Assembly (NCBI GenBank): GCA_002708205.1
Contig: PAMR01000034.1
Location: 17,617 to 65,004, forward strand
Origin: Gammaproteobacteria bacterium
GTDB taxonomy: Bacteria > Pseudomonadota > Gammaproteobacteria > Pseudomonadales > Azotimanducaceae
Direction of reading: 5' to 3'
Length of the DNA stretch: 47,388 nucleotides
A program made the translations under genes and the position numbers. How positions within the stretch are numbered: position 1 is the first letter of the stretch; every line of letters starts with the position of its first letter. A model generated the notes under the pieces. The model was not told the origin of the DNA, made no database searches, and saw only the letters and a list, made by a program, of their open reading frames with translations. Positions 1,784 through 37,902 of the stretch are shown piece after piece.

Positions 1784-2848
1784 CTAGATAGTTAATCGAT
1801 CGATATCCTTAGGTTGCATGCCTATCAGTTTTGCGGCGTCTAGAATCTCGTTCCAGCTAGTATTATCAATGGGGATTTTGTTGGATAACCGATCCTCCAT
1901 GGATTCGAGTTCCGGTTCTCCCGGTATGCGGACTTTGTCGTGCCCTGCGGCGACTTGTGTACTTTGAACATAGTCGATCATCGACGAAACTTCAGACTGA
2001 AATCTGGCATGACCTCCAAACAAGTCAGGGTCAAGTACGACCATAAGCATGTGATTGACGATAGTTCCGACTCGTTGATTGTCGGGTTGCATAGTCCATT
2101 CACCGACCAGCCCGCCACCGAGTAATTCACACATAAATGCGAGACCGTAGCCTTTGTGTTTGCCAAATGGACCTAAAGTTCCCGAAGGTTTCTCATAAAT
2201 TACTCGAGGATCGTTTGTTGGATTGCCCTCATGGTCAACTAATGCCCCGTCAGGTACTTCTTTTTTGGCGTTGTAAGCTACTCTCACTTTTCCTAAGGCG
2301 ATCGCGCTTGTCGCCATATCCAGAACAATTGGCTCATTCCTGTCGCGTGGTACTACGCAACAAAATGGATTAGTTTGAAGTCGGGCTTCCGTTCCGGCGT
2401 AAGGCGAAACGCGGGGCTCATGACCTACGACATTGACAAAGTGCATCGAGACAAATCCTGCAGCTCCGGCTATTTCCCCATATGTCCCAATGCGGCCGAG
2501 GTGGTGAGCATTGCGGAGGCCTATGCAAGCTAAACCGTTTTCTTTCACGCGAGTGACTGCGATATCAGTGGCTTCCTTACCGACAATTTGTCCAAACCCG
2601 AACTGACCGTCGATGAGAATGACAGAACCGGAATCTCTGATGGTTTTTGCGTGTGCGGTAGGATTCAGTGTGCCTGCGCGTAGGTTCTGAATGTAAGTCG
2701 GCACCATACCTACACCATGGGAGTCATGTCCTTTGAGGTTAGCAAGTACGAGATGTTTAGCTGTTTCTTGAGCTACAGAGAATTCTGCGCCTCCGCTAAC
2801 AAATATAGCAGAGACGAATTGTTGTAGTTTTTCACTGTCGATTAACAT
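1784..2848 (-). CDS. Ldh_2 family (malate/L-lactate/ureidoglycolate-type) NAD(P)H-dependent oxidoreductase, substrate unknown
   Basis: 354 aa. Motifs LKGHDSHGVGMVPTY and NAHHLGRIGTYGE are typical of the Ldh_2 family. Confidence 0.8.
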   Translation of the reverse strand: MLIDSEKLQQFVSAIFVSGGAEFSVAQETAKHLVLANLKGHDSHGVGMVPTYIQNLRAGTLNPTAHAKTIRDSGSVILIDGQFGFGQIVGKEATDIAVTRVKENGLACIGLRNAHHLGRIGTYGEIAGAAGFVSMHFVNVVGHEPRVSPYAGTEARLQTNPFCCVVPRDRNEPIVLDMATSAIALGKVRVAYNAKKEVPDGALVDHEGNPTNDPRVIYEKPSGTLGPFGKHKGYGLAFMCELLGGGLVGEWTMQPDNQRVGTIVNHMLMVVLDPDLFGGHARFQSEVSSMIDYVQSTQVAAGHDKVRIPGEPELESMEDRLSNKIPIDNTSWNEILDAAKLIGMQPKDIDRLTI

Positions 2849-2997
2849 GCATTACCCCGAGCACAAAAAGAAACAGCGCAATATGCCGGAATTCGATGGC
2901 GATATAAATCAGAAGGTGTCTTTCTTGTCCTAGTTACGGGAGTATTAGGTTCTTTCGTTATTGTTTGATCCCTAATTCGAAAAAGGTACTAGTAAAG

Positions 2998-3858
2998 ATG
3001 GAGAACGCGTTAGCGACCGGTTACGGACTAATTGAAGGGCCAGTGTGGGATTCCGAGCGCGGCCTACTTTTTTCTGATGTTCTCAATGGAGGCGTATTTT
3101 GTCTGGATCAATCCGGGAATGTGGAACAGTTGATCGAACATCGAAAGGGTATTGGCGGTATGGCATTGCATGAAAAAGGAATAGTAGTAGGTGGGCGAAA
3201 CATAGCGTTAAAGGCGTTTGACAAAAATTCTACTCAAGTTTTGCTCGATAGAGATTTGAATGCCCACAATGTGGGATATAACGACCTAACAACAGATTCG
3301 CATGGAAGGATTTATGCCGGTTCGTTAGGAAGTCCTGTTTTTGACCCGAAAGCTGTCTTTCAACCGGGCCAACTCTTCTTGATAGATGTCGATGGTTCTT
3401 CGAGGGTCGTTGCTGAAGATGTGCTATTAACTAATGGTTTAGGTTTTTCTCCTGATGGTCAAACACTGTATCACTCAGATTCTCGTCGCCAAGCCGTCTT
3501 TTTTTATAATGTCCTAAGTGATGGTTCGCTAGGAGCTAAATTACATTTTGCGGATATAGAAAAGGGATCTCCTGACGGATTGGCTGTTTCCAGTGATGGC
3601 CGTGTGTGGGTGGCAATAGCTGGCGGTGGTTTAGTGATCGTTTTTGATTCAGAAGGGAATTCGGTGGATTCCATTGACGTTCCTCTACCTATGGTTACAA
3701 GTGTATGTTTTGGAGGTGACGATCTGTGTGATCTATTTGTTGTCACCGGTTCAGATGGGACTGGTGACAAAAATCGGGGGACGGTCTTTCGATATGCAGT
3801 AGACACGCCGGGGCTGCCAATCCCGATTTCCCGCGTTCGAACAGCAAAATCCATCTAA
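2998..3858 (+). CDS. SMP-30/gluconolactonase/LRE-like (SGL) beta-propeller lactonase
   Basis: Motifs GLIEGPVWDSERGLLFSDV, NDLTTDSHGRIYAG and PDGLAVSSDGRVWVA. The ORF opens at TTG 2965; I chose the first ATG at 2998. Confidence 0.8.
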   Translation: MENALATGYGLIEGPVWDSERGLLFSDVLNGGVFCLDQSGNVEQLIEHRKGIGGMALHEKGIVVGGRNIALKAFDKNSTQVLLDRDLNAHNVGYNDLTTDSHGRIYAGSLGSPVFDPKAVFQPGQLFLIDVDGSSRVVAEDVLLTNGLGFSPDGQTLYHSDSRRQAVFFYNVLSDGSLGAKLHFADIEKGSPDGLAVSSDGRVWVAIAGGGLVIVFDSEGNSVDSIDVPLPMVTSVCFGGDDLCDLFVVTGSDGTGDKNRGTVFRYAVDTPGLPIPISRVRTAKSI

Positions 3859-3888
3859 ATCACAGATTCTGTACAAGGTTCGAAGTAT

Positions 3889-5214
3889 TTGAGAGATGAG
3901 CATTCACGCGTGTCAGTAAAACCTCGAGTGCAGATCGAAAAGCCTACCCATACGCGTTTCTTTTACGGTTGGGTCATTGTTGCGGTTGCGGCCCTTTTGG
4001 GCTTTCTAGGCACGGGCTTTTACTCCTATTCGCGCGGTATTTTCTTAACTGAGCTCGCCGACGAATTAGCGAATGGAAGCCGTTTCTGGATTGCCGCAGG
4101 ATTTTCAGCTGCAAGTATTACCGGGGCCATCGTAGCGCCATTTATCGGGCATCTATTGGATCGATTTTCTCCAAGAATCGTCATTCTAACCGGTGTCTGT
4201 GTCGTAGCGACTTCCTATGTTTTGTTGGCTAGTACCGCAAACTTGTGGCAGTACTTTATGGTGGTCGGTATTGGTATGGGTTTTGGAATGACCTGTATGG
4301 GAGGACTAGCATGGCACCGAACGGTAGTTAGTTGGTTTGATCACTGGCGGGGAAGAGCTATCGCTTTGGCTGTAATGGGTGCCTCGATAGCCGGAGTTAT
4401 GATGCCTCCTCTAGTTGAAGCCCTTTTAGAATCGATCGGATGGCGACTTAGCTACACTGTGTTCGCAGCGGTGACCTTCTTCGCATTGGTTCCGGCAGTT
4501 TGGCTGTATATGAAGGATCGGCCTTCGGATATAGACGAAGTACGCGACGGACATAAATATGTTGATTCGAACCCCGAAGAGCAAATTCGCATTGATGAAG
4601 ACACCCGGGAATGGCGTTGGCAAGATATGCTCAGGGCCAGACCTTTTTGGGCGATCGGGCTGGTTTTTGGTGCGATGGGCTGCGTTTATTCGGCCACCAT
4701 GTTGCATTTATTTGGTCACCTAACAGATATAGGCGTTACGAGGAGTTATGCGGCTTGGGTTTTGTCGGCTACAGCGCTTTTTGCGGCGGTGGGAAAGCCT
4801 ATTGTGGGGTGGCTAGCGGACGCTGTGGGAGCACGAGTGACTATTTGGTTGGCGTTAGTGTGCCAGGGAGGAGCTTTGGTCTTATTTGCTCAAGCCGATA
4901 GTTTGAGCATGGCTTTTGCTGCGGGATGTTTATATGGGTTCGGCTATTCGGGTATGTCGCCACTGAGGACATTTGCGTTGTCCACCGCGATGGGCAGCGT
5001 GTCTTTTGGCGCAGCGAATGGAATTATTCGTTTTGTAGAACTTCCGCTTGTACTGATGGCTTCACCTTTAGCGGGTTTTATTTATGATGTAACTGGCAGC
5101 TACCGCTTGGCCTTTTTAATCCTAGCGGGCCTGATGGGTGTAGCATTACTAGGGCCTTTGTTTATGCCGGCAGGTGGTGCGCGCGAGAGGCATCGTCGAA
5201 AACAGTCGAACTGA
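3889..5214 (+). CDS. MFS transporter
   Basis: 441 aa with many hydrophobic segments split by a charged central loop (KDRPSDIDEVRDGHKYVDSNPEEQ). The start is uncertain: TTG at 3889, with no nearby in-frame ATG. Confidence 0.75.
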   Translation: MRDEHSRVSVKPRVQIEKPTHTRFFYGWVIVAVAALLGFLGTGFYSYSRGIFLTELADELANGSRFWIAAGFSAASITGAIVAPFIGHLLDRFSPRIVILTGVCVVATSYVLLASTANLWQYFMVVGIGMGFGMTCMGGLAWHRTVVSWFDHWRGRAIALAVMGASIAGVMMPPLVEALLESIGWRLSYTVFAAVTFFALVPAVWLYMKDRPSDIDEVRDGHKYVDSNPEEQIRIDEDTREWRWQDMLRARPFWAIGLVFGAMGCVYSATMLHLFGHLTDIGVTRSYAAWVLSATALFAAVGKPIVGWLADAVGARVTIWLALVCQGGALVLFAQADSLSMAFAAGCLYGFGYSGMSPLRTFALSTAMGSVSFGAANGIIRFVELPLVLMASPLAGFIYDVTGSYRLAFLILAGLMGVALLGPLFMPAGGARERHRRKQSN

Positions 5215-5251
5215 AATTGGCCTTAACATACATTATGGGTGGCGAGAAGAT

Positions 5252-6286
5252 ATGAATAGACCGGAGCATTTAATCGAAGATCCCGATGTGACTGCGCTGG
5301 AATTGAATGACGTAGGTTGGGTTGGAGTCGACAAAGAATCTCCGCGCGTAGTAGAACTACACGATTATTTGGTTGCAAATAATGGGATACGGGGTCTTGA
5401 GATAGCGGATCCGGATCAAATAGAGAAAGCGACAGAATTATTTTATCGAGATGGTTTTGTAGTGGTGCGTGACGTTTTGGATACTGATCAACTTGAATTT
5501 ATTCGGAGCGGTTGCGACGATGTCATTCACCAGATTCTCGAGAAAGATGCTACCCGATATGGGAATCGAGGATCGCATCGATACTCCTTCGGTGGATCCA
5601 GTATCAGTGGGCATTTAATGCACCGTCCCGAGTGGGCAATGCTCATAGACTTGTCAACTGTCACACCAATTCTCAAATCGATATTTGGCTCATCCAATTA
5701 CATCGCTCGTGGCGGGGGTGGTGACTTTTGCTTGCCTGGAGCTATTGAGTATCAGGGTTTGCATGCGGATATGGGGGATCGACGCGTTTTGACCAATCCC
5801 AAAACTGGAAAGCAGAGAATATTCGGTTCCTTTTACGATCCTAGAGGTAAATTAAATTATCGGGACCTACCTTGTCCGTACGTGTGCTGTAATTTTTTGA
5901 TGGTAGATTTTACGGCAACGAATGGGCCCACTCGTCAAATTCCTGGCACACAACATAGCCAGCAACCGATACCGACTCTTGAAGAAGAACCGGAATGGAT
6001 GAAGTTGTCGACGGTGTGTCCTGCCCCGGCGGGGTCGGTGTTGATTCGAGATATTCGAGCTTGGCATGGTGGTACGCCAAATGTTTCGGACGAGGTTCGA
6101 GCGATACCGAACGCTGAGTTCTACGCTCCTTGGTTTCATGAGCCTATGCCCAAGAGTATGCCTAGGTCTATTTACGAAACACTTTCGGAACATGGGAAGC
6201 ACCTATGCCGTTTTATAGTTGCGGATACGGTGGATGAAGTGAAAGTGGGCGTTCGTGATGATATAGGATCCATTCGTCCAAAATGA
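5252..6286 (+). CDS. PhyH-family Fe(II)/2-oxoglutarate-dependent dioxygenase
   Basis: HxD motif in GLHADMGD, distal His in WHGGTPN, Arg in VRAIPN, N-terminal FYRDGFVVVRDVL. The ORF opens at 5174 overlapping the MFS gene, so I chose ATG 5252, which follows GAGAAG. Confidence 0.75.
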   Translation: MNRPEHLIEDPDVTALELNDVGWVGVDKESPRVVELHDYLVANNGIRGLEIADPDQIEKATELFYRDGFVVVRDVLDTDQLEFIRSGCDDVIHQILEKDATRYGNRGSHRYSFGGSSISGHLMHRPEWAMLIDLSTVTPILKSIFGSSNYIARGGGGDFCLPGAIEYQGLHADMGDRRVLTNPKTGKQRIFGSFYDPRGKLNYRDLPCPYVCCNFLMVDFTATNGPTRQIPGTQHSQQPIPTLEEEPEWMKLSTVCPAPAGSVLIRDIRAWHGGTPNVSDEVRAIPNAEFYAPWFHEPMPKSMPRSIYETLSEHGKHLCRFIVADTVDEVKVGVRDDIGSIRPK

Positions 6287-6373: not shown

Positions 6374-7483
6374 ATGAATAGTGAGGCGTTAGACGGAATT
6401 AATGTTGTAGATGTCTCCGGCACCGTTGGTACTGGGTACTGCTCGAAAGTATTTGCTGATTATGGGGCCCAGGTTGTAAACCTAGAGACAGAGTCAGGTT
6501 TTGCTACGAGGCGTCTTGGACCCCATATCCCTGGCGTTTCGGAACCAGAAAATAGTGCGATGCACGCATTTCTCAGCACGAATAAGAAAAGTGTTGTGGC
6601 TACAGATTTGTCGAGTGATGTAGCAAAACGTGTGCTTCAAGAGGCTGATTTGATTCTTGACGATGGAAGTGATTGGGATGGGTGCAACCAGAGCACCGAC
6701 GCAATAAGGTCGAGCATCACCTGGTATGGGAAGGGTGGCCCTTATAGCGATTTCGTGGGGAGTGATATGGAAATTTTCGCTCTAAATGGGATGTTGCGTG
6801 GTATCGGTCATATTGACGGCCCCCCAATCATTCCAACGGGATACCAAGCTCAGATCATCGGCGGTGCGTCGGCGTTTATAGGCAGTATGGCTCAAGTGTT
6901 CGGTAAAGAACTGGGTAATAGCTTGGAACCTGTACATGTCGAGACGAGCATTTACGAATCATGTCTGTGCTTTACTGATGTGGGAATCGTTGGAGCGTAT
7001 TCGTCTGGTATCGTGGCCCCTCGTATGGGGATTAACCGCTTTCCGCCAACCTATCCTCTCGGTGTATTTCCGTGCAAAGATGGTTGGATTGGCGTGACTG
7101 TACTAACACCTAGTCAATGGCACGCATTTTGTAAATTGTTAGAAATGGACGATCTATCGCAACTAGAGCTGTTTCAATCGGCGATTGGGCGACTTCAAGG
7201 TATTGACATTATTGAGCCAAGAATGCGGGAAAAACTACTAACTTTTTCTGCGGAAGATATTTTTTATCGATCCCAGAAAGCTCGGGTACCTTTGGCGCGA
7301 GTTCCAACAATGGAGGAACTTTTCGATGTCGATCAGTTTGTCGAGCGTAATGCTTTTTCTTTAGCTCACAGCCAGCATTATGAAATCAATGTACCAAGTG
7401 TTCCGTTCCGTTTGTTCCGCACACCGCCGAAATTTGGGGGTGTGGTGGCTCATTTGGGTGCTCACACAAAGGATTACGCATGA
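6374..7483 (+). CDS. Family III (CaiB/BaiF-type) CoA-transferase paralogue lacking the catalytic Asp
   Basis: N-terminal INVVDVSGTVGTGYCSKVFADYGAQVVNLE matches the family. The segment DGPPIIPTGYQAQIIGG aligns without gaps to the DGPP...LGDSNTG region of YfdW/Frc, placing Gln160 (codon 6851-6853) where the nucleophilic Asp sits. Confidence 0.8.
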   Translation: MNSEALDGINVVDVSGTVGTGYCSKVFADYGAQVVNLETESGFATRRLGPHIPGVSEPENSAMHAFLSTNKKSVVATDLSSDVAKRVLQEADLILDDGSDWDGCNQSTDAIRSSITWYGKGGPYSDFVGSDMEIFALNGMLRGIGHIDGPPIIPTGYQAQIIGGASAFIGSMAQVFGKELGNSLEPVHVETSIYESCLCFTDVGIVGAYSSGIVAPRMGINRFPPTYPLGVFPCKDGWIGVTVLTPSQWHAFCKLLEMDDLSQLELFQSAIGRLQGIDIIEPRMREKLLTFSAEDIFYRSQKARVPLARVPTMEELFDVDQFVERNAFSLAHSQHYEINVPSVPFRLFRTPPKFGGVVAHLGAHTKDYA

Positions 7484-9783: not shown

Positions 9784-12700
9784 TCAGCTCTCATCTGCGA
9801 CAGGTATTTGTCCCCTGTGTTGCCGCGCTTCAGATTCTAAAGTCTTTTGTTTTAATCCTACCCACTCAAAGAAATCCTCTACTATCAGATAGAGGGAAGG
9901 GACCAGTAACAAGGTAATTGTCGTCGCAACCACAACTCCAAAGGCAAGTGAGACCGCCATAGGTACGATAAAAAAAGTTGCTGGATTTTGGTTGATCATT
10001 AGGGGGAACAAACCCACAAAGGTTGTCGTGGAGGTTAATACTATTGGCCGAAAGCGCACTGCGCCCGCTGTGACGACAGCTTCGATAAGCGGTATGCCGT
10101 CGCGACGCCGTCGATTGATGTAGTCAACGAGAACTAGGCTTGCGTTAACGACCACACCGGATAATGCGACGATGCCGAGCATTGAAAAAAACATGAGCTG
10201 AACATCCATGATGAAGTGACCGATAATTGCTCCGACTGCACCGAATGGTATAACCGACATTATCACTAGGGGTTGGAGATACGAGCGGAGTGGAATTGCC
10301 AAAAGAGCGTAGATCAAAATGAGAGAAAGTAATGCACCTTGTGCCAATCCGAGCATGGCTTTATTTCGTTCGAGTGCTTCCCCGGCTTGACCAGCGACCA
10401 CTGAAGTATAGGTGCTTTGAATTTCTGGTATCACTTCGCTCAGGATAGTCGTGTTTATCTCTTCTGGAGTTACAATCGCTCGATCGACATCGGCGGTGAC
10501 GTTAATAACACGTTGTCCATCGACTCTTTCTATCTTGGAGTAACCGCGCCCTATTTCGAATCGGGCAACTGATGTGAATGGTACTTCAATGCCTTCTGGT
10601 GTCCGTATTCGCATGGATTCAAGATTACCAATTGACTGTCTTTCATCGGTCGGCAAACGGACCATCACTCGGACTTCATCGGGGCCGCGTTGTATTCGTT
10701 GCACTTCAGCTCCGTAAAAAGCATTACGTACTTGTCCTGCCAAATCAGACAATGTGAGCCCCAGATTTTGCGCTTGCGGTAGAAGCTCAAGTTTAATTTC
10801 TTGTTTTCCAGCACGAAACGAGTCTTGTATATCAAATACGCCATCAAACCGAGACAGTTCCGCTCGTAGCTGTAGAGCGGCGAGACGTAATTCTTCGACG
10901 TCCTGACCAGTTAGTTCTAGGTTTATGGGTTCTCCTGCATTAAAGGAATCGGTAGTAAAGGTGAGCCCAACGGCTTCGGGTATCGGGCCGACGAGGGCGC
11001 GCCAACGATCGGCAATTTCACCGCTTTCTAGGTAACCTCGATTGGCCAAGGGAATTAATTCCAGCCCCACTTCGGCGAAATTACTACGACCGGGTTCAGG
11101 CCTGCGAGGTGGCCCCCCTCGATGAATATGCGTACCAATACTAACCAATACATTTTTCACGGTACTTTGCGAATTAGTGTCTATCTCTCGGTCCAGTTCG
11201 TTACGTAATTGTTCCGCTGCCTTTTCTAGACGAAGTGTTGCTTTTTCCGTAACGGATGCTGCTACACCTGCTGGCATCTCTAGTGTGGCGTACACAGTGT
11301 CTCCGTCGATGCTTGGAAAAAATGAAAATACGACGCGACCACTAAGGATTAGAGCGATTGTTATTATAAGGATTCCTAATCCAACTGATGCGGTCATGTA
11401 ACGCCATTCAATAGCCCGACGTAGAAAGGGGAGATAGAAGTTGTTGGCAAAATTTTGCAAACTTCCAGAGAATTTCCCTTGTATTCGGTTCCATCTCCCG
11501 TTGGGATCAGGATTGTCACGTTTACGGTGGGCGAGATGAGAAGGGAGAATCCATTGTGATTCGATAATTGACATCACCAGAGCGATGATGACAACCACTC
11601 CTATGACCCCAAAGAAGTCGGCCATGCGGCCTGGAACAAGTAGCAAGGGAAGAAATGCCGCCATAGTGGTTAGGACGCCGAAAATAACAGGGATAGATAC
11701 TTCCCACGTACCATCTACTGCCGCTCGTAAAGGGGGTTTCCCCATCTCTTCATGTCCGTATACTCGTTCCCCAACCACAATCGCGTCGTCGACTAATATT
11801 CCCAACACAAGAATAAAGGCCATCACTGTCATTGTGCTTATGGATACGTCGAAGTAGGGAAAAATAGCGATTGTTCCTAACAAGGCAATCGGTATTCCAG
11901 CGGCAACCCAAAGTGCTAGTCGAAATCGAAGAAATAGTGCTAGCACTATTAGTACTAGCGCGAGTCCAGAAAAAGCTGTTTTCAATAATGTTTCAACACG
12001 TTGCACTAATTCTGCTGATGCATCTCCATATATTTCTAGTTCGATACCAGGAGGAAGATCCGATCTTTTATTGTTGACATACTCTTTGACGTCCTCTGCG
12101 ATCGTCATTATGTCTTCCTTTCCGATTCGGAAGACCTGGATAACACTTGCTCGCTTCCCGTTAAACCGAGCAAGTAGATTACCTTCTTCGAAGCCATCGA
12201 TGACTGACGCAACATCCTTTACACGTACTTGTGTACCGTCGTCTTTGGTTAAAACAACAATATTTTCGAATTCGGGACTAAGGTAAGCCTGACCTTTAGC
12301 TCGCAGGAGGATTTCTCCCCCCGCGGTCCGCAATGTTCCACCGGGCATATCGAGAGATGCACGTCTGACTGCTCCGGCTACTTGGTTCAGCGTTATTTCG
12401 TGTTTCCGAAGCATATTCTCGGAAACTTCGATGGAAAGTTCATAGGGTCTTACATAAACGAGATCGACTTGAGATAGGCCATCAATAGCAACAACCTCAT
12501 CACGCACTTCCTTCGCCAATTCTTTTATTGTGCGTTCGTCTGTATCGCCGGACAATGCGATTTCAAGAACGTTATGTCGGAAAGAAAACTTTGAAACGAT
12601 CGGGGTTTCAATTTCTTCTGGGAACGACGAGATTCCATCGACTAGATTCTTTACTTCGTTAAGCGCGCGCGTCCCGTCGGCGCCATCTTCTAATTGGACT

Positions 12701-12978
12701 TGTACTGAACATATACCTTCACTAGCAGTCGCGTACATTTTTTCAATACTTTCGATACCTTCGACCGCTTCTTCAATACGTATACAAACGCCTTCCTCGG
12801 CTTCAGTCGGTGCAGCACCGAGGTATGGGACTTGAACTGATACTACTTCGACCTCAATGCTGGGAAACTCTTCTTGGTGTACGGTCAGAAGCGCCATTAC
12901 ACCGCCTACTAAAAGAATGGACATCAGGAGATTGGCTGCAACACTGTTTTGCGTAAACCAGGTAATGATGTGGCGCAT
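9784..12978 (-). CDS. RND efflux transporter, inner-membrane permease (AcrB/AcrD/AcrF family)
   Basis: 1064 aa. N-terminal FTQNSVAANLLMSILLVGG, two large periplasmic loops and 12-TM-type hydrophobic blocks. Confidence 0.9.
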   Translation of the reverse strand: MRHIITWFTQNSVAANLLMSILLVGGVMALLTVHQEEFPSIEVEVVSVQVPYLGAAPTEAEEGVCIRIEEAVEGIESIEKMYATASEGICSVQVQLEDGADGTRALNEVKNLVDGISSFPEEIETPIVSKFSFRHNVLEIALSGDTDERTIKELAKEVRDEVVAIDGLSQVDLVYVRPYELSIEVSENMLRKHEITLNQVAGAVRRASLDMPGGTLRTAGGEILLRAKGQAYLSPEFENIVVLTKDDGTQVRVKDVASVIDGFEEGNLLARFNGKRASVIQVFRIGKEDIMTIAEDVKEYVNNKRSDLPPGIELEIYGDASAELVQRVETLLKTAFSGLALVLIVLALFLRFRLALWVAAGIPIALLGTIAIFPYFDVSISTMTVMAFILVLGILVDDAIVVGERVYGHEEMGKPPLRAAVDGTWEVSIPVIFGVLTTMAAFLPLLLVPGRMADFFGVIGVVVIIALVMSIIESQWILPSHLAHRKRDNPDPNGRWNRIQGKFSGSLQNFANNFYLPFLRRAIEWRYMTASVGLGILIITIALILSGRVVFSFFPSIDGDTVYATLEMPAGVAASVTEKATLRLEKAAEQLRNELDREIDTNSQSTVKNVLVSIGTHIHRGGPPRRPEPGRSNFAEVGLELIPLANRGYLESGEIADRWRALVGPIPEAVGLTFTTDSFNAGEPINLELTGQDVEELRLAALQLRAELSRFDGVFDIQDSFRAGKQEIKLELLPQAQNLGLTLSDLAGQVRNAFYGAEVQRIQRGPDEVRVMVRLPTDERQSIGNLESMRIRTPEGIEVPFTSVARFEIGRGYSKIERVDGQRVINVTADVDRAIVTPEEINTTILSEVIPEIQSTYTSVVAGQAGEALERNKAMLGLAQGALLSLILIYALLAIPLRSYLQPLVIMSVIPFGAVGAIIGHFIMDVQLMFFSMLGIVALSGVVVNASLVLVDYINRRRRDGIPLIEAVVTAGAVRFRPIVLTSTTTFVGLFPLMINQNPATFFIVPMAVSLAFGVVVATTITLLLVPSLYLIVEDFFEWVGLKQKTLESEARQHRGQIPVADES

Positions 12979-33602: not shown

Positions 33603-35039
33603 ATGTCGCAAGCAGAAGTATTGAGATCAAAGTTAGATCATCCGGTGATCGATGCGGATGGCCATTGGTTGGAGTACGGTCCAATCCTATCGGCTGCTTT
33701 GGAGAAGATAGGAGGTCAGGACGCCATTCGTGGATTGCAGATGGGTGGAACACGGGTACGCCAATCGCTGCAAATGACACCTAATGAACGCCGACATGCG
33801 CATGTTCCGCAAGAAGCGTTCTGGGGAGCCCCGACAAAAAATACACGTGATCGAGCCACGGCCATGATGCCTAAACTGATGTATGAACGGCTCGACGAAT
33901 TTGGGATTGATTTTTCTGTTCTGTTTCCAACGATGGGATTGGGATTTCCCAGGATAGATGACGGAGAAGCGCGGCGAGCTCTTTGTAAGGCGTTTAACAT
34001 TTACTGTGCCGAACTTTTTGAACCGTTTAAGGATCGAATGACTCCAGCCGCGGTCATTCCTATGCATAATCCGGAGGAAGCGATCGCGGAATTGGAACAC
34101 GCTGTCGGTCAGCTCGGTCTTAAAGCGGTGACAATGAATAGCTTGATTGAACGTCCTGTAGAGGAAATTAAGGAGAAGCGGCCCGATTCCTCCGATCTAG
34201 CAAAGTGGTTTGACGTGATCGGGATTGATAGTGCCTATAATTACGATCCCGTATGGGAGACATGTCGAGAACTAGGAGTATCCCCGACATTTCATAGAGG
34301 GTCTCGCGGTAAAGCACTACGAGTGTCACCAAGTAATTTTTGCTACAACCATATTGGGCATTTTGCAGCCGCAGGAGAAGCGACCTGTAAAGCTCTTTTC
34401 TTGGGTGGTGTCACTCGACGATTCCCCGATCTAAATTTTGCCTTGCTGGAAGGTGGTGTCGGGTATGCCTGCCTGTTATATGCCGATCTGATAGGACATT
34501 GGAATATTCGCAATGGCGATGCCCTCGATTATACGGACCCCGCGAATCTCGACCTGGGGCTCCTGCAAGAGTTGTCAGAAAAATATGCCGGATCGGACAT
34601 GCAGACGGCCATCAAAGCGAGGAAAGGCCTGAGTACCCGCAATGATGATTCAACGACGGGTGCTATTAGCAACCTGGATGACTACTCGGCGTGTGAGATC
34701 GAGTCAGCGAGCGATATCAAATCGTTATTTGTGGATCGTTTTTATTTTGGATGCGAAGCGGATGATTCAACGAACGCTTGGGCATTCGATACAAAAAATA
34801 ATCCGTTTAACGCTGAGTTGAAAACGCTCTTTGGCTCAGATGTCGGTCATTTTGATGTGCAGGATATGGCAGGTGTTCTTCCTGAAGCATATGAGCTAGT
34901 TGAAGAGAGTAAAATGACTCTTGATGATTTTCGCCATTTTGTTTTCGAAAATCCGGTCCGTTTTTGGGGTGAAACAAATCCGCGATTTTTTGCGGGGACA
35001 CGTGTAGAAAAGGAAGCGCTGGCCGTCTTGAGAAGTTAG
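33603..35039 (+). CDS. Amidohydrolase_2 (ACMSD-like TIM-barrel metal hydrolase/decarboxylase) family protein
   Basis: VIDADGHWLEY N-terminal metal motif. 478 aa. GGAGG precedes the start. Confidence 0.75.
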   Translation: MSQAEVLRSKLDHPVIDADGHWLEYGPILSAALEKIGGQDAIRGLQMGGTRVRQSLQMTPNERRHAHVPQEAFWGAPTKNTRDRATAMMPKLMYERLDEFGIDFSVLFPTMGLGFPRIDDGEARRALCKAFNIYCAELFEPFKDRMTPAAVIPMHNPEEAIAELEHAVGQLGLKAVTMNSLIERPVEEIKEKRPDSSDLAKWFDVIGIDSAYNYDPVWETCRELGVSPTFHRGSRGKALRVSPSNFCYNHIGHFAAAGEATCKALFLGGVTRRFPDLNFALLEGGVGYACLLYADLIGHWNIRNGDALDYTDPANLDLGLLQELSEKYAGSDMQTAIKARKGLSTRNDDSTTGAISNLDDYSACEIESASDIKSLFVDRFYFGCEADDSTNAWAFDTKNNPFNAELKTLFGSDVGHFDVQDMAGVLPEAYELVEESKMTLDDFRHFVFENPVRFWGETNPRFFAGTRVEKEALAVLRS

Positions 35040-35102
35040 GGAGCCGTGATCCAAGAAATATCGGTTGCGAAGCATCTTTTCATTTCATGAATAAAGAAAA
35101 AG

Positions 35103-35179
35103 TGGCGCGCCCACAGGGACTCGAACCCCGAACCCCCAGGTTCGAAGCCTGGTGCTCTATCCAGTTGAGCTACGGGCGC
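35103..35179 (-). tRNA. tRNA-Arg (anticodon UCG), CCA encoded
   Basis: The reverse complement folds as a 77-nt cloverleaf. Acceptor GCGCCCG/UGGGCGC; D arm GCUC-AACUGGAUA-GAGC; anticodon arm CCAGG-CUUCGAA-CCUGG; T arm CGGGG-UUCGAGU-CCCUG; discriminator G plus CCA. Confidence 0.9.
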
Positions 35180-35255
35180 ACAATGTATTGCTGCCTAGTA
35201 TATCAAGGACGGCGGTTCAACGACATTTCCTATACGGTTAAAGATTGGAAAACAG

Positions 35256-35332
35256 CTCTTCGATAGTAGGTAATTCGAATACGGAGTGACTTTTCGTGGT
35301 CGCCGAAATTCGATGTGAGTTTCATCGAAGAG
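35256..35332 (+). other. 77-nt imperfect inverted repeat / potential RNA hairpin of unknown function
   Basis: CTCTTCGAT (35256-35264) is the exact reverse complement of ATCGAAGAG (35324-35332). Inner helices are TCGAAT/ATTCGA (35275-35280 / 35308-35313) and CGG/CCG (35282-35284 / 35303-35305). Confidence 0.3.
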
Positions 35333-35513
35333 GTAAGTCTTAAGTATCGTATTGTTAATACGTCCGTTAGTTTGAGTAAAAATTAACTTTCGAAATCCGT
35401 TTCTTCGCGAGTATGACACCCAGAGTGCGCATAAATCTGCCGGGATGAATTATTAAGGACAAAGCCCGTGCTATTCTTGACCACCAGAAAAGTGGTTACG
35501 AAATAGGATACTT

Positions 35514-36614
35514 ATGGAGTTCAACGAGGTCGAAGAAGCGATCTCTGCGGTAGCGTCAGGGCAGCTAGTCGTAGTGGTTGATGACGACGATCGTGAAAAC
35601 GAAGGCGATTTAATAATGGCTGCTTCCAAGGCGACGCCAGAACAGATCGCTTTCATGATCAGACACACTAGCGGTATTCTGTGTACGCCACTCACTGAGG
35701 AACATGCTAAACGGCTCAACCTCGAGCCTATGGTTGCGCGGAATGATGCTCCACTATCGACAGCATTTACTGTCAGCGTTGATTATAAGCAAAACCTTAC
35801 CACTGGCATTTCTGCCGAAGAGCGAGCCTCAACCGCTCTCGCGCTGTCGACGAATAATGCGCAAGCATCAGACTTTGTGAGACCGGGACATATCTTTCCA
35901 TTGGTGGGCAGAAAAGGGGGTGTGCTGGTTCGGTCAGGGCATACAGAAGCAGCAATCGATTTATCTGAGGCGGCCGGTTGTGCACCGGTGGGTTTACTTG
36001 CGGAAATAGTTAATGACGATGGGACGGTGAAACGTTTGCCGCAACTTATCGACTTTGCCAAGGAACACGAACTTCTAATTATTTCCATAGCCGATTTGAT
36101 TGCGTATCGACAACGGAGAGAACAGTTAGTAGAGCGCACTTTAGAATTTGGAATTAATACGCGAATTGGCAAGGCTAAAGCCTATGCGTATCGCACGAAA
36201 TTTGAGGACGCTGAACATTTGGCGTTGGTTTTTGGGGATATTTCTAGAAGTGAAGCATTACCGGTTCGAATACATCGTGAAAAGCTAATTGATGATGTTT
36301 TCGGCTCACAGACGGCCCACGATACGAACTTGCTAGATGCTGCTTTGGATCGCATTCAAAATCTAGGGGGAGGTATCTTGATTTATCTTCGTAGCGGATT
36401 TGTAGGGGTGCCCCATGAAAAGCTCAGCGATTCTGGAGAAACGTCCAGGGAGACTGCGCGACAGGCGGAGTGGCTTGAAATAGGCGTTGGTGCTCAGATT
36501 CTGCGTGACCTCGGAGCTCGAAAAATTCGAATCATCTCAGGTCGAGAGGTCGGTTATGTAGGCCTCGATGGCTTTGGCATTGCTGTTAGTGGGATGGAAC
36601 TACTAAACGACTAA
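35514..36614 (+). CDS. ribB: 3,4-dihydroxy-2-butanone-4-phosphate synthase fused to a degenerate GTP cyclohydrolase II-like domain (RibBX type)
   Basis: N-domain VVVVDDDDRENEGDLIMAA...IRHTSGILC. The C-domain aligns with RibA (HLALVFGDIS), but the three Zn-ligand Cys are replaced: IHREKLIDD for VHSECLTGD, and QTAHDT for LRCDCG. Confidence 0.85.
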   Translation: MEFNEVEEAISAVASGQLVVVVDDDDRENEGDLIMAASKATPEQIAFMIRHTSGILCTPLTEEHAKRLNLEPMVARNDAPLSTAFTVSVDYKQNLTTGISAEERASTALALSTNNAQASDFVRPGHIFPLVGRKGGVLVRSGHTEAAIDLSEAAGCAPVGLLAEIVNDDGTVKRLPQLIDFAKEHELLIISIADLIAYRQRREQLVERTLEFGINTRIGKAKAYAYRTKFEDAEHLALVFGDISRSEALPVRIHREKLIDDVFGSQTAHDTNLLDAALDRIQNLGGGILIYLRSGFVGVPHEKLSDSGETSRETARQAEWLEIGVGAQILRDLGARKIRIISGREVGYVGLDGFGIAVSGMELLND

Positions 36615-36622
36615 TTACCTGC

Positions 36623-36865
36623 TTAGTTCTTTCGATAATGAAATCCGCGGAAATTTCCGCAAGAACCTGTATACACAATACGAATATCGTTGGTTTTTCG
36701 GCCACAGTTAATGCACCGAACACGCTTCCTAATTTTCGCAATGGGATAGTCTTTACTGTGCGCAGCAGTGAGGCGACGGATGTCTAGAACCTCTGTACGA
36801 TGACATAACGTGCAAACACCGAATAGTTCGTACGTATTGAGCAGTTCGGCAAGCGTTTTTGGCAT
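36623..36865 (-). CDS. Hypothetical 80-aa basic zinc-ribbon-like protein (CxxC...CxxC), candidate SOS-regulated gene
   Basis: ATG-initiated ORF with C18xxC21, C51xxC54 and C69; 16 Lys/Arg against 6 Asp/Glu; no hydrophobic segment. There is no Shine-Dalgarno, and the LexA box abuts the ATG. Coding status unproven. Confidence 0.5.
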   Translation of the reverse strand: MPKTLAELLNTYELFGVCTLCHRTEVLDIRRLTAAHSKDYPIAKIRKRVRCINCGRKTNDIRIVYTGSCGNFRGFHYRKN

Positions 36866-36884
36866 ACTGTATATATATACAGTA
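36865..36884. promoter_or_regulatory. LexA (SOS) box, perfect palindrome TACTGTATATATATACAGTA
   Basis: Exact match to the E. coli-type consensus (CTGT-N8-ACAG core within a 20-nt perfect palindrome). It lies in the 77-bp divergent spacer between the zinc-ribbon ORF and the PdxA-like gene. Confidence 0.8.
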
Positions 36885-36942
36885 TTTCAATTATCATTGC
36901 GCGATGGTCTGAATAAGAGATGGTTTTGAGAGGGAAGGTGAG

Positions 36943-37902
36943 ATGGTTAGTAAACGTCCTGTTATCGGCATTACGTTGGGAGATCCAGCCGGAATAGGTC
37001 CAGAGGTACTTTCGAAAGCACTTCAGAATTCCATGCCTGATTGTACAATCGTGCTATATGGCGCGCGTTGGGGGCTAGAACTCGGCGCCAGGGTTGCCGG
37101 TGTCGACTTTCCAACCGGAAGTAAATTTGTGAGTGTGGGGGGCGAAAAGCCAAACGATTTTACGTTCGGTCGTGTGCAGGCGAGGTGTGGAGAGATAGCG
37201 GTGCTTGCGGTCGAAGCAGCCGCTCGCGATGCCCTGCTAGGTAAAATTGATGCAATGGTGACCTGTCCACTGAATAAGGAGGCGATCCATGCGGCGGGTT
37301 ACGATGATATTGGACATCAAGAAATTTTGGCTCGTCTCTCCGAGGTCGACAGTACAGCTACCATGCTGATGACGCCAGGTCTTCGGGTGGTGCACTTATC
37401 CACTCACAAGTCTTTGATAGAGGCCGGTCGCTATGTGACTGAAGAAACGGTATTCGAGAAGATACGGTTATGTGCCGACACCCTAAAACGTTGGGGAATG
37501 CCAGACGCTAGAATAGCCGTAGCCGCACTCAATCCACATGGAGGAGAAGGTGGATTATTGGGGCGGGAGGAAATAGAAGCCATTCGGCCTGCAGTGTTAA
37601 AGGCCGCGAATATGGATATTGATGCAACGGGACCGTTACCGGCCGATTCAATATTTAATCGAGCTATAGAGGGTGAGTTCGATGTGGTTTTGGCCATGTA
37701 TCATGATCAGGGCCACATCGCTATCAAAGTACATAATTTTCATGAGAGCGTAACAGCAACGATGGGAATCCCATTCATTCGGACGTCTGTCGATCATGGT
37801 ACCGCTTTTGATATTGCTGGACGTGGAATAGCTGATCCACGCAGTACTTCGAGTGCGTTAGAAACCGCAATTACGCTTTCTCTTGGTAAATATGGATCCT
37901 AA
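36943..37902 (+). CDS. PdxA-family NAD(P)-dependent (decarboxylating) hydroxy-acid dehydrogenase
   Basis: PVIGITLGDPAGIGPEV, HGGEGGLLG and AMYHDQGHIA are PdxA family motifs. It is not necessarily the pyridoxal-pathway enzyme. Confidence 0.85.
   Translation: MVSKRPVIGITLGDPAGIGPEVLSKALQNSMPDCTIVLYGARWGLELGARVAGVDFPTGSKFVSVGGEKPNDFTFGRVQARCGEIAVLAVEAAARDALLGKIDAMVTCPLNKEAIHAAGYDDIGHQEILARLSEVDSTATMLMTPGLRVVHLSTHKSLIEAGRYVTEETVFEKIRLCADTLKRWGMPDARIAVAALNPHGGEGGLLGREEIEAIRPAVLKAANMDIDATGPLPADSIFNRAIEGEFDVVLAMYHDQGHIAIKVHNFHESVTATMGIPFIRTSVDHGTAFDIAGRGIADPRSTSSALETAITLSLGKYGS

Follow-up and report, generated by a model that had tools for sequence, protein, structure and literature searches.

A predicted LexA-controlled zinc-ribbon gene family in uncultured gammaproteobacteria and temperate phages

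A perfect SOS box at the start codon of a small gene

We investigated a 47,388-nt stretch of a gammaproteobacterial genome assembly (contig PAMR01000034.1, positions 17,617 to 65,004; hereafter the window), in which a palindrome resembling a binding site of the SOS repressor LexA (an SOS box) abuts the start codon of a small open reading frame (ORF). The two probably form a LexA-repressed SOS module, in which a lone small gene carries one operator fused to its 5' end. An initial annotation of the window had made the same central claim, that of a LexA-controlled and undescribed small zinc-ribbon protein, and the comparative tests described here support it as a prediction.

The gammaproteobacterial LexA motif is a 16-bp palindrome, CTGT-N8-ACAG, with an AT-rich spacer, and is close to TACTG(TA)5CAGTA (PMC3323433). 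Positions 36865-36884 of the window read TACTGTATATATATACAGTA, a 20/20 identity to the consensus, so that by this definition the palindrome is a perfect predicted LexA site of the gammaproteobacterial type. The initial annotation had placed a perfect 20/20 box here, abutting the ORF start, and the window sequence bears this out; the perfect palindrome itself is longer than the 20 nt first reported, covering 22 nt (36864-36885). The predicted operator is listed without a strand. Its final base is the A of the ATG of the small gene, which occupies 36623-36865 on the minus strand and encodes a basic, predicted C4 zinc-ribbon protein of 80 aa.

The box is the only CTGT-N8-ACAG site in the window, as the initial annotation had stated, and no second 20-mer of the window lies within six mismatches of the LexA consensus. 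The 16-nt core is by itself not significant (0.36 expected, and at least one occurrence in 31 of 100 shuffles). The expectation in the window is 8e-8 for the exact 20-mer and 0.044 for any perfect 20-nt palindrome, in agreement with an earlier rough estimate of about 0.05. No SOS gene was found within the window or any fetched locus, and the remark that no classical SOS gene lies nearby holds for the whole window.

Co-conservation of the box and the ORF

A profile scan of a genome collection returned 22 loci with the small ORF, all in metagenome-assembled genomes (MAGs) of Gammaproteobacteria or Pseudomonadales from marine, sediment and soil samples; these clade labels are taken from the MAG records. 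The loci have a GC content of 54-70% (47% in the window), and encode proteins with 34-63% identity to that of the window. A LexA-type site sits at the start codon in 22/22 of them, with a strict CTGT-N8-ACAG in 15 and one or two right-arm mismatches in 7. Comparison of 23 sequences shows CTGTATAT to be invariant, whereas the stretch immediately before it has no relation from one lineage to another, meaning that the box is conserved before orthologues amid diverging flanks. The gene order was constant wherever sequence was fetched: genes for a fumarylacetoacetate (FAA) hydrolase and a zinc-dependent alcohol dehydrogenase (Zn-ADH), then pdxA, the box with the opposing ORF, and a converging ribBA.

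Because this genome sample was chosen through the ORF, co-occurrence was retested in 80 metagenome loci anchored by pdxA alone, where a box was counted as present at no more than 5/20 mismatches to the consensus. One of these loci (L037) matches the window, with pdxA and the small ORF 100% and ribBA 99.7% identical. The ORF is present in 66/80 loci, and 65 of the 66 have the box: the core is perfect in 47, has one mismatch in 16 and two in 2, and a single locus (L055) is boxless. A further 10/80 loci have pdxA directly after ribBA and lack the ORF, and their best site has 9/20 mismatches; the remaining 4/80 are uninformative, as ribBA was not detected upstream. The box therefore follows the ORF (65/66 vs 0/10, Fisher p = 1e-11). 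A box persisting without the ORF, the situation that the initial annotation had named as fatal to its own idea, was not seen in any of the 10 ORF-less relatives. Strong sites number 68 in 516 kb of related DNA, with a single one in each locus concerned, and all of them are at the ORF. Given this co-occurrence and the placement of all sites at the ORF, we assign the predicted operator to the small ORF and not to ribBA or pdxA. As judged from these samples, a broad clade of gammaproteobacteria, uncultured and of marine and soil origin, has conserved box and ORF together.

The ORF-less relatives also indicate what the locus looks like without the module. In four of them (L059, L064, L069 and L081) the ribBA stop and the pdxA start overlap in an ATGA, suggesting a translationally coupled operon for the cofactors riboflavin and pyridoxal phosphate (PLP); in the others (L049, L072, L096, L100, L111 and L116) the two genes are likewise directly joined. 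In the window this putative operon is split by the predicted SOS module. Overall, the box/ORF pair seems to have been either inserted at the ribBA-pdxA junction or lost from it.

A predicted zinc-ribbon protein under purifying selection

The small ORF is intact in 23/23 genome-derived orthologues, and marine metagenome assemblies hold the exact protein along with seven one- or two-residue variants. When the window is compared with three near-identical contigs, 10/12 differences within the ORF affect third codon positions, with no change in the box. The ratio of nonsynonymous to synonymous substitution rates (dN/dS) is 0.05-0.25 across orthologue pairs with usable dS, except for two pairs: one at 0.30, which has only two differences, and one at 0.47 (L020/L022). 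This substitution pattern marks the small ORF as a genuine protein-coding gene that is subject to purifying selection.

When 1.84 billion representatives were searched exhaustively with HMMER, 74 clusters (defined at 50% identity) were recovered at E <= 1e-3, of which 11 reach E <= 1e-10. The ORF had been described as an orphan, a label that does not survive these clusters and the phage homologues described below. Homologues, co-occurrence of box and ORF, and purifying selection, which the initial annotation had proposed looking for, were thus all found. Family members are 56-132 aa long, with one exception of 342 aa. In an alignment of 68 sequences (A3) the only invariant columns are C18, C21, C51 and C54, giving two family-wide CxxC knuckles as expected of a C4 zinc ribbon; in the window, the first (C18-x-x-C21) is encoded at 36803-36814 and the second (C51-x-x-C54) at 36704-36715, both on the minus strand. 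TLxDL, RxRxRC and IRIVY are recurring motifs of the family.

The window protein has five cysteines, among them the two CxxC pairs, with the spacing CX2C-X29-CX2C. It contains 16 lysine and arginine and 6 aspartate and glutamate residues, for a net charge of +10, an isoelectric point of 9.9 and a grand average of hydropathy of -0.41. No membrane segment was found (maximum 19-residue Kyte-Doolittle mean 0.81), and the protein does not match the profile of a type I toxin such as TisB or DinQ, which is a short hydrophobic transmembrane peptide. The two CxxC pairs, the charge of about +10 and the lack of a membrane segment had all been noted from the translation and are reproduced by calculation. 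AlphaFold2 with the family alignment gives a model of three strands and two helices (mean predicted local distance difference test score, pLDDT, 87.8), in which the first knuckle lies between strands 1 and 2, in the beta1-beta2 hairpin.

Neither the window protein nor the 68 family members have a significant match in Pfam, NCBIfam, PHROGs or PADLOC, in line with the earlier remark that it was not recognised as any known SOS protein. The best Pfam match of the small protein is Cytochrome_C7, below threshold (E = 0.013), and the curated cut-offs of the Pfam and NCBIfam models for SulA, DinI, YebG, SymE, TisB/DinQ, SidA and YneA were never reached. PADLOC defence-system models matched 0/12 family members. 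A profile search of PDB sequences gave chance-level matches only, to zinc-ribbon ribosomal proteins (E >= 0.04). A word-indexed protein search found the near-identical cluster only, with little gain from a profile; a plasmid tblastn with the small protein had no match, and a viral-contig scan for the gammaproteobacterial subfamily was empty. The clusters examined contain no named or isolate-derived sequence, database labels of members read 'hypothetical' with one wrong 'ribosomal protein L37E', and a text search of the literature found no description of the family. The longer members P0050, P0090, P0089, P0086 and P0075 were inspected for extra domains, with nothing informative.

The family lies outside the known SOS protein families, and its nearest relatives are unannotated phage proteins. 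For these reasons we class it as a new, previously uncharacterised family of predicted LexA-regulon genes, a classification that we regard as well supported.

More distant metagenomic homologues sit among integrase and helix-turn-helix (HTH) genes and are without the standard box. Two of these loci (L029, about 2633-2649, and L030, about 1778-1794) share a conserved element, CTG[TC]A..GAGTTATACAG, located 53 nt upstream of the distant family member. It resembles a LexA box with a spacer of N9, not N8, and a further TATACAG lies 36 nt upstream of it.

Phage relatives with their own LexA motif

Searches with tblastn gave weak matches in two temperate rhizobiophages, to the unannotated hypothetical proteins p035 of 16-3 and p59 of phi2LM21. 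Profile alignment of A3 with hhalign establishes the relationship (p59, E = 7e-13; p035, E = 7e-11; probability 97-98%), and in a direct comparison with the window protein about 31% of 54-55 aligned residues are identical. The phage proteins share the CxxC...CxxC core and have a LexA-type box upstream. They differ from the window module in being phage-borne, with a GTTC-N7-GTTC site at about -33, an ordinary leader and ligase or SRAP (SOS response-associated peptidase) genes often adjacent.

The alphaproteobacterial LexA motif is a direct repeat, GTTC-N7-GTTC (PMC3323433). Upstream of p035, a terminator-like sequence is followed by GTTCTCATTTTGTTC at -33, which fits this motif. We gathered 45 viral contigs with p035 homologues (61-100% identity) and found GTTC-N7-GTTC at -24 to -34 in 38 of them, with invariant repeats and variable spacers; it is usually the sole such site in the 4.2-kb locus. 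Four further loci have GAAC-N7-GAAC about 70-84 nt upstream, for a total of 42/45. In phi2LM21, an alphaproteobacterial-type site lies about 77 nt upstream of p63, which heads a same-strand gene run ending in p59 and the SRAP peptidase gene. Control by LexA would thus be a trait of the family, with two branches that each carry the motif type of their host's LexA. Nothing speaks more strongly for functional LexA control than this match between each branch and the motif of its host.

In 29/46 viral loci, a gene for an ATP-dependent DNA ligase is found within 2 kb, arranged in one of three ways. In many loci it follows on the same strand, about 65 nt downstream; a second subclade has it upstream and on the other strand; and in phi2LM21 it is convergent, past an intervening SRAP gene. 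SRAP genes occur within the fetched flanks of four viral loci. In a set of prophage contigs (L121, L123-L125, L127-L130, L135, L136, L140, L141, L145 and L147, at about 2330-3300) the order is LexA-type box, zinc-ribbon gene and, about 65 nt downstream on the same strand, the ligase gene; two of the contigs, L121 and L135, have in addition an upstream SRAP gene that lies on the other strand. This unit looks like a candidate SOS-inducible phage ligase operon. The ligase linkage persists across differing viral architectures.

Promoter and translation start

How the small gene is transcribed can be approached through the spacing of box and ATG. The 20 nt upstream of the window ORF are the box itself. 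In 40/66 loci the gap from the core of the box to the ATG is exactly 1, 2 or 4 nt; all 40 abutting loci start with ATG and none has a Shine-Dalgarno sequence. The remaining 25 loci have leaders of 5-95 nt, and GTG starts occur in 4 of these vs 0/40 abutting loci (p = 0.019). In high-GC orthologues (up to 70% GC), nothing upstream other than the interior of the box (TATATT or TATATA) is AT-rich and resembles a -10. The corresponding element in the window is the TA-repeat centre of the box (TATATA, 36872-36879, minus strand), a candidate -10 that we infer from these comparisons and that would put the start of transcription at the ATG or only a few nt from it.

The initial annotation had pointed to a different -10, GATAAT, which is present at 36895-36890 (minus strand) in the window and in near-identical relatives; neither its position nor its sequence is conserved among other orthologues. 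With a start after GATAAT, the leader would be formed by the palindrome, whose hairpin (-11 kcal/mol) would have the A and U of the AUG in paired positions. On balance we lean, by a narrow degree, towards a -10 inside the operator with transcription starting at the operator's 3' edge, which would make the mRNA leaderless or nearly so wherever the ATG adjoins the box. The missing Shine-Dalgarno, which had been listed as an oddity, is indeed absent and would be better explained in this way; loci with the ATG away from the box would have an ordinary leader under the same in-box -10. Under either promoter model, LexA would cover the -10-to-start region.

Several points weigh against this reading. 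A promoter scan called no sigma-70 promoter on the minus strand, and leaderless mRNAs are uncommon in gammaproteobacteria. There is also no good -35 before either candidate -10, which is why the leaderless model is something that we infer and do not treat as a result. Like known leaderless mRNAs such as that of lambda cI from PRM, the small gene has no Shine-Dalgarno, an AUG start and a candidate -10 at a fixed short distance upstream. Unlike in the lambda cI mRNA, the operator, candidate -10 and start codon would be packed into about 23 bp. This compact fusion of operator, putative promoter and start codon is the unusual feature of the module. It would make a clean test case for leaderless translation in gammaproteobacteria, and a compact, portable, predicted damage-inducible expression unit of about 23 bp that is open to direct testing in a heterologous host with an E. 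coli-type LexA.

Loci with leaders of about 37-39 nt have a conserved AAGGC before the ATG, which may be a Shine-Dalgarno sequence. They form a sublineage (L089, L091, L092, L097, L099, L101, L103, L110, L112 and L114) with invariant GCC...AGGC elements. A 5' untranslated region hairpin in these long-leader orthologues was considered and dropped, since RNAalifold found 3 invariant pairs only and zero covariation.

Possible functions and alternative explanations

In the proposed mechanism, LexA would sit over the -10, start-site and start-codon region and block RNA polymerase. RecA-stimulated self-cleavage of LexA would then allow transcription from the -10 inside the box, producing an mRNA whose leader is absent or at most about 5 nt long and which would be translated without a Shine-Dalgarno sequence. 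Because the operator is a consensus site, and hence by analogy with E. coli one of high affinity, repression of the gene would be tight, and would be lifted only at a late stage or under heavy damage. In E. coli, operators of consensus strength are typical of products that are harmful if leaky (sulA, umuDC, tisB). As in sulA, umuDC, tisB and dinQ, one small gene has a CTGT-N8-ACAG palindrome over its putative promoter or 5' end, and the strong operator would by analogy imply tight repression and late induction. The window module differs from these in its unrelated protein, in the fusion of a perfect-consensus operator to the start codon and in the lack of a Shine-Dalgarno.

The product might tentatively be regarded as a nucleic-acid-binding protein, rich in arginine and stabilised by zinc, that serves in the processing or tolerance of DNA damage, although we consider this to be somewhat short of an even bet. 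A role in DNA damage is proposed because the phage homologues lie in LexA-boxed units beside ATP-dependent ligase and SRAP (YedK-type) genes, and nucleic-acid binding is favoured also by the arginine-rich surface and the zinc knuckles. SRAP / YedK (PF02586) adjoins family members in phi2LM21-type phages as a neighbour and not a homologue, with an unrelated fold and size. The link of SRAP / YedK to the SOS response was itself first inferred from genomic context. The tie to LexA across two proteobacterial classes with different motifs, together with the phage linkage to ligase and SRAP, makes a real damage-response role likely.

Some observations pull the other way. The gammaproteobacterial copies have metabolic neighbours, with no ligase or SRAP in the fetched loci; the functional partner of the gammaproteobacterial copy, if any, is encoded elsewhere. 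The viral loci are mutually related, and the phage counts consequently overstate independence. Structural comparison is uninformative: the best Foldseek match in the PDB has E = 0.6 and a template modelling (TM) score of about 0.35, to knuckles of the rubredoxin or HypA type, and the one match in BFVD (probability 1.0, TM 0.70) is an unnamed 87-aa viral protein.

We consider it unlikely, if no less likely than any other alternative, that the product is a temperate-phage-derived regulator of a host or prophage target (a LexA-controlled antirepressor, or a small zinc-finger activator like Ogr/Delta) and not a repair factor. The temperate-phage members do form LexA-boxed units after a terminator-like sequence, and distant homologues lie among integrases and HTH genes. 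Like the LexA-controlled antirepressors of phages (coliphage 186 Tum and the Gifsy type), the small gene is its own predicted LexA-repressed unit with temperate-phage kin, and like Ogr/Delta, Com and Lar the product is small (about 70-80 aa), basic and phage-associated, with four cysteines in two pairs of the C4 type. However, Pfam and PHROG searches detected no sequence relationship to the antirepressors and no match to the Ogr/Delta, Com or Lar families at E < 0.01, and the window protein has its own cysteine spacing. The window copy is also chromosomal, outside any prophage and among metabolic genes, and, as read from the comparison, vertically inherited across a wide clade of genomes of 47-70% GC. 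The recurrent linkage to ligase and SRAP instead favours DNA transactions. This phage context likewise favours repair over arrest, and so tells against a checkpoint or toxin-like SOS effector that halts division or replication in the manner of SulA, SidA or YneA. Lineage-specific small SOS division inhibitors are common and the consensus-strength operator would suit a product that is harmful if leaky, but with no membrane segment and no similarity to known inhibitors we think such an effector rather improbable.

It is also improbable, a little more so than an effector, that the box mainly serves the divergent operon of pdxA, Zn-ADH and FAA hydrolase, or acts equally on both sides, with the small ORF as a bystander. 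The distance from the box to the pdxA ATG is 58 nt in the window, about 8-13 nt in several orthologues and 8-77 nt overall, so that the box could act on pdxA too, which counts against assigning it to the small gene alone. Since the site is a palindrome, a -10 embedded in it could work in both directions, and a plus-strand promoter-like site inside the ORF (36800-36827) would place the box in the 5' untranslated region of pdxA. However, the box is missing in all 10 relatives with pdxA directly after ribBA, and phage homologues without pdxA still carry LexA boxes. Spacing to the small-ORF ATG is fixed in 40 loci, whereas that to the pdxA start is variable, and where an inserted gene separates pdxA from the box (L014) the box remains with the ORF. 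Far less probable still is that the palindrome is not a LexA site at all but a promoter, or another regulator's operator that resembles an SOS box. Its AT-rich centre could be merely a -10 element, yet the 20/20 consensus identity, the conservation of the CTG and CAG arms in genomes of 47 to 70% GC and the other LexA motif type borne independently by the phage homologues all speak for LexA.

The initial annotation had offered a non-coding or antisense RNA as the alternative to a protein. In this scenario, an SOS-induced RNA would interfere with ribBA and with read-through from ribBA to pdxA, and the ORF would be incidental. It draws on the convergent stops, 8 nt apart with no terminator between them, on the overlap of the ORF with the 3' end of ribBA in GC-rich orthologues and on the splitting of a ribBA-pdxA operon that is coupled in relatives. 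As a primary function we reject it, because the ORF is intact and dN/dS is 0.05-0.25; this strong purifying selection, the invariant cysteines and the homologues in unrelated contexts leave interference as secondary at most, and the scenario as very improbable overall. Since the module lies antisense between ribBA and pdxA, a coupled operon in some relatives, its induction might, speculatively, also disturb ribBA-to-pdxA transcription.

Returning to the LexA-repressed module, its broadest interpretation is that it is the founding example of a widespread but so far unrecognised SOS-associated zinc-ribbon family that combines a new damage-response role, a leaderless compact unit and an antisense insertion in the ribBA-pdxA operon. 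We would be surprised if all of this held. If it did, the product could bind DNA ends or lesions as a partner of ATP-dependent ligases or SRAP, or be a new checkpoint factor, and DNA damage might throttle the synthesis of the photosensitising cofactors riboflavin and PLP. SOS regulons beyond model organisms are poorly charted, and the family adds to them a predicted new SOS gene family that has no Pfam, NCBIfam or PHROG model.

Genomic neighbourhood and other observations

The neighbours of the module in the window are metabolic (ribBA, pdxA, an alcohol dehydrogenase, an FAA hydrolase and others), with no prophage context. The convergent ribBA (35514-36614, plus strand) encodes a bifunctional 3,4-dihydroxy-2-butanone 4-phosphate (DHBP) synthase / GTP cyclohydrolase II (Pfam PF00926 and PF00925), and is syntenic in all genome loci fetched far enough to include it. 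The divergent pdxA (36943-37902; TIGR00557 score 309.7, cut-off 290.35), which shares the strand of ribBA, heads a pdxA / Zn-ADH / FAA-hydrolase run. The stop codons of the small ORF (36623-36625) and ribBA (36612-36614) are separated by an unstranded spacer of 8 nt (36615-36622), and the earlier description of stops 8 nt apart with no terminator between them stands. A terminator-like hairpin was flagged at 36645-36662 on the minus strand, but it is no usable terminator because it falls within the small ORF.

A perfect 14-nt palindrome, GCGGAAATTTCCGC (36647-36660), is found in the same 3' part of the small ORF, ahead of the stop. It has one central mismatch in the close relatives L001-L003 and is probably incidental.

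In GC-rich orthologues the small ORF continues into the 3' end of ribBA and overlaps it (in L014, for example, the small ORF spans 3998-4306 and ribBA 4246-5346). A C-terminal tail, SSSVPSSVSPNPDTPT, is conserved in such orthologues (L012, L014, L016-L018 and L023-L027). We rejected it as an independent motif: because the ORF runs into ribBA, the tail is the antisense reading of the conserved ribBA C-terminus, and its conservation is probably imposed by ribBA. The L014 locus, from a soil MAG, also has a 164-aa ORF (3429-3923, minus strand) inserted between pdxA and the box/ORF pair, with the box still at the small-ORF ATG.

An Rfam scan of 34900-37100 found no RNA family except tRNA, and no FMN riboswitch before ribBA. 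The tRNA is a tRNA-Arg(TCG) (35103-35179, minus strand), located between an amidohydrolase gene and ribBA. In L010 and L011, a second and weaker CTGT-N8-ACAG site, CTGTATGG[GT]TATACAG, occurs at 7015-7034 with 6-7/20 mismatches; it lies just after a tRNA gene and ahead of a 149-aa ORF with a signal-peptide-like N-terminus. The second longest palindrome of the window is a perfect 18 nt, AATAGTGCTAGCACTATT, at 11933-11950, within a 1064-aa ORF (9784-12978, minus strand).

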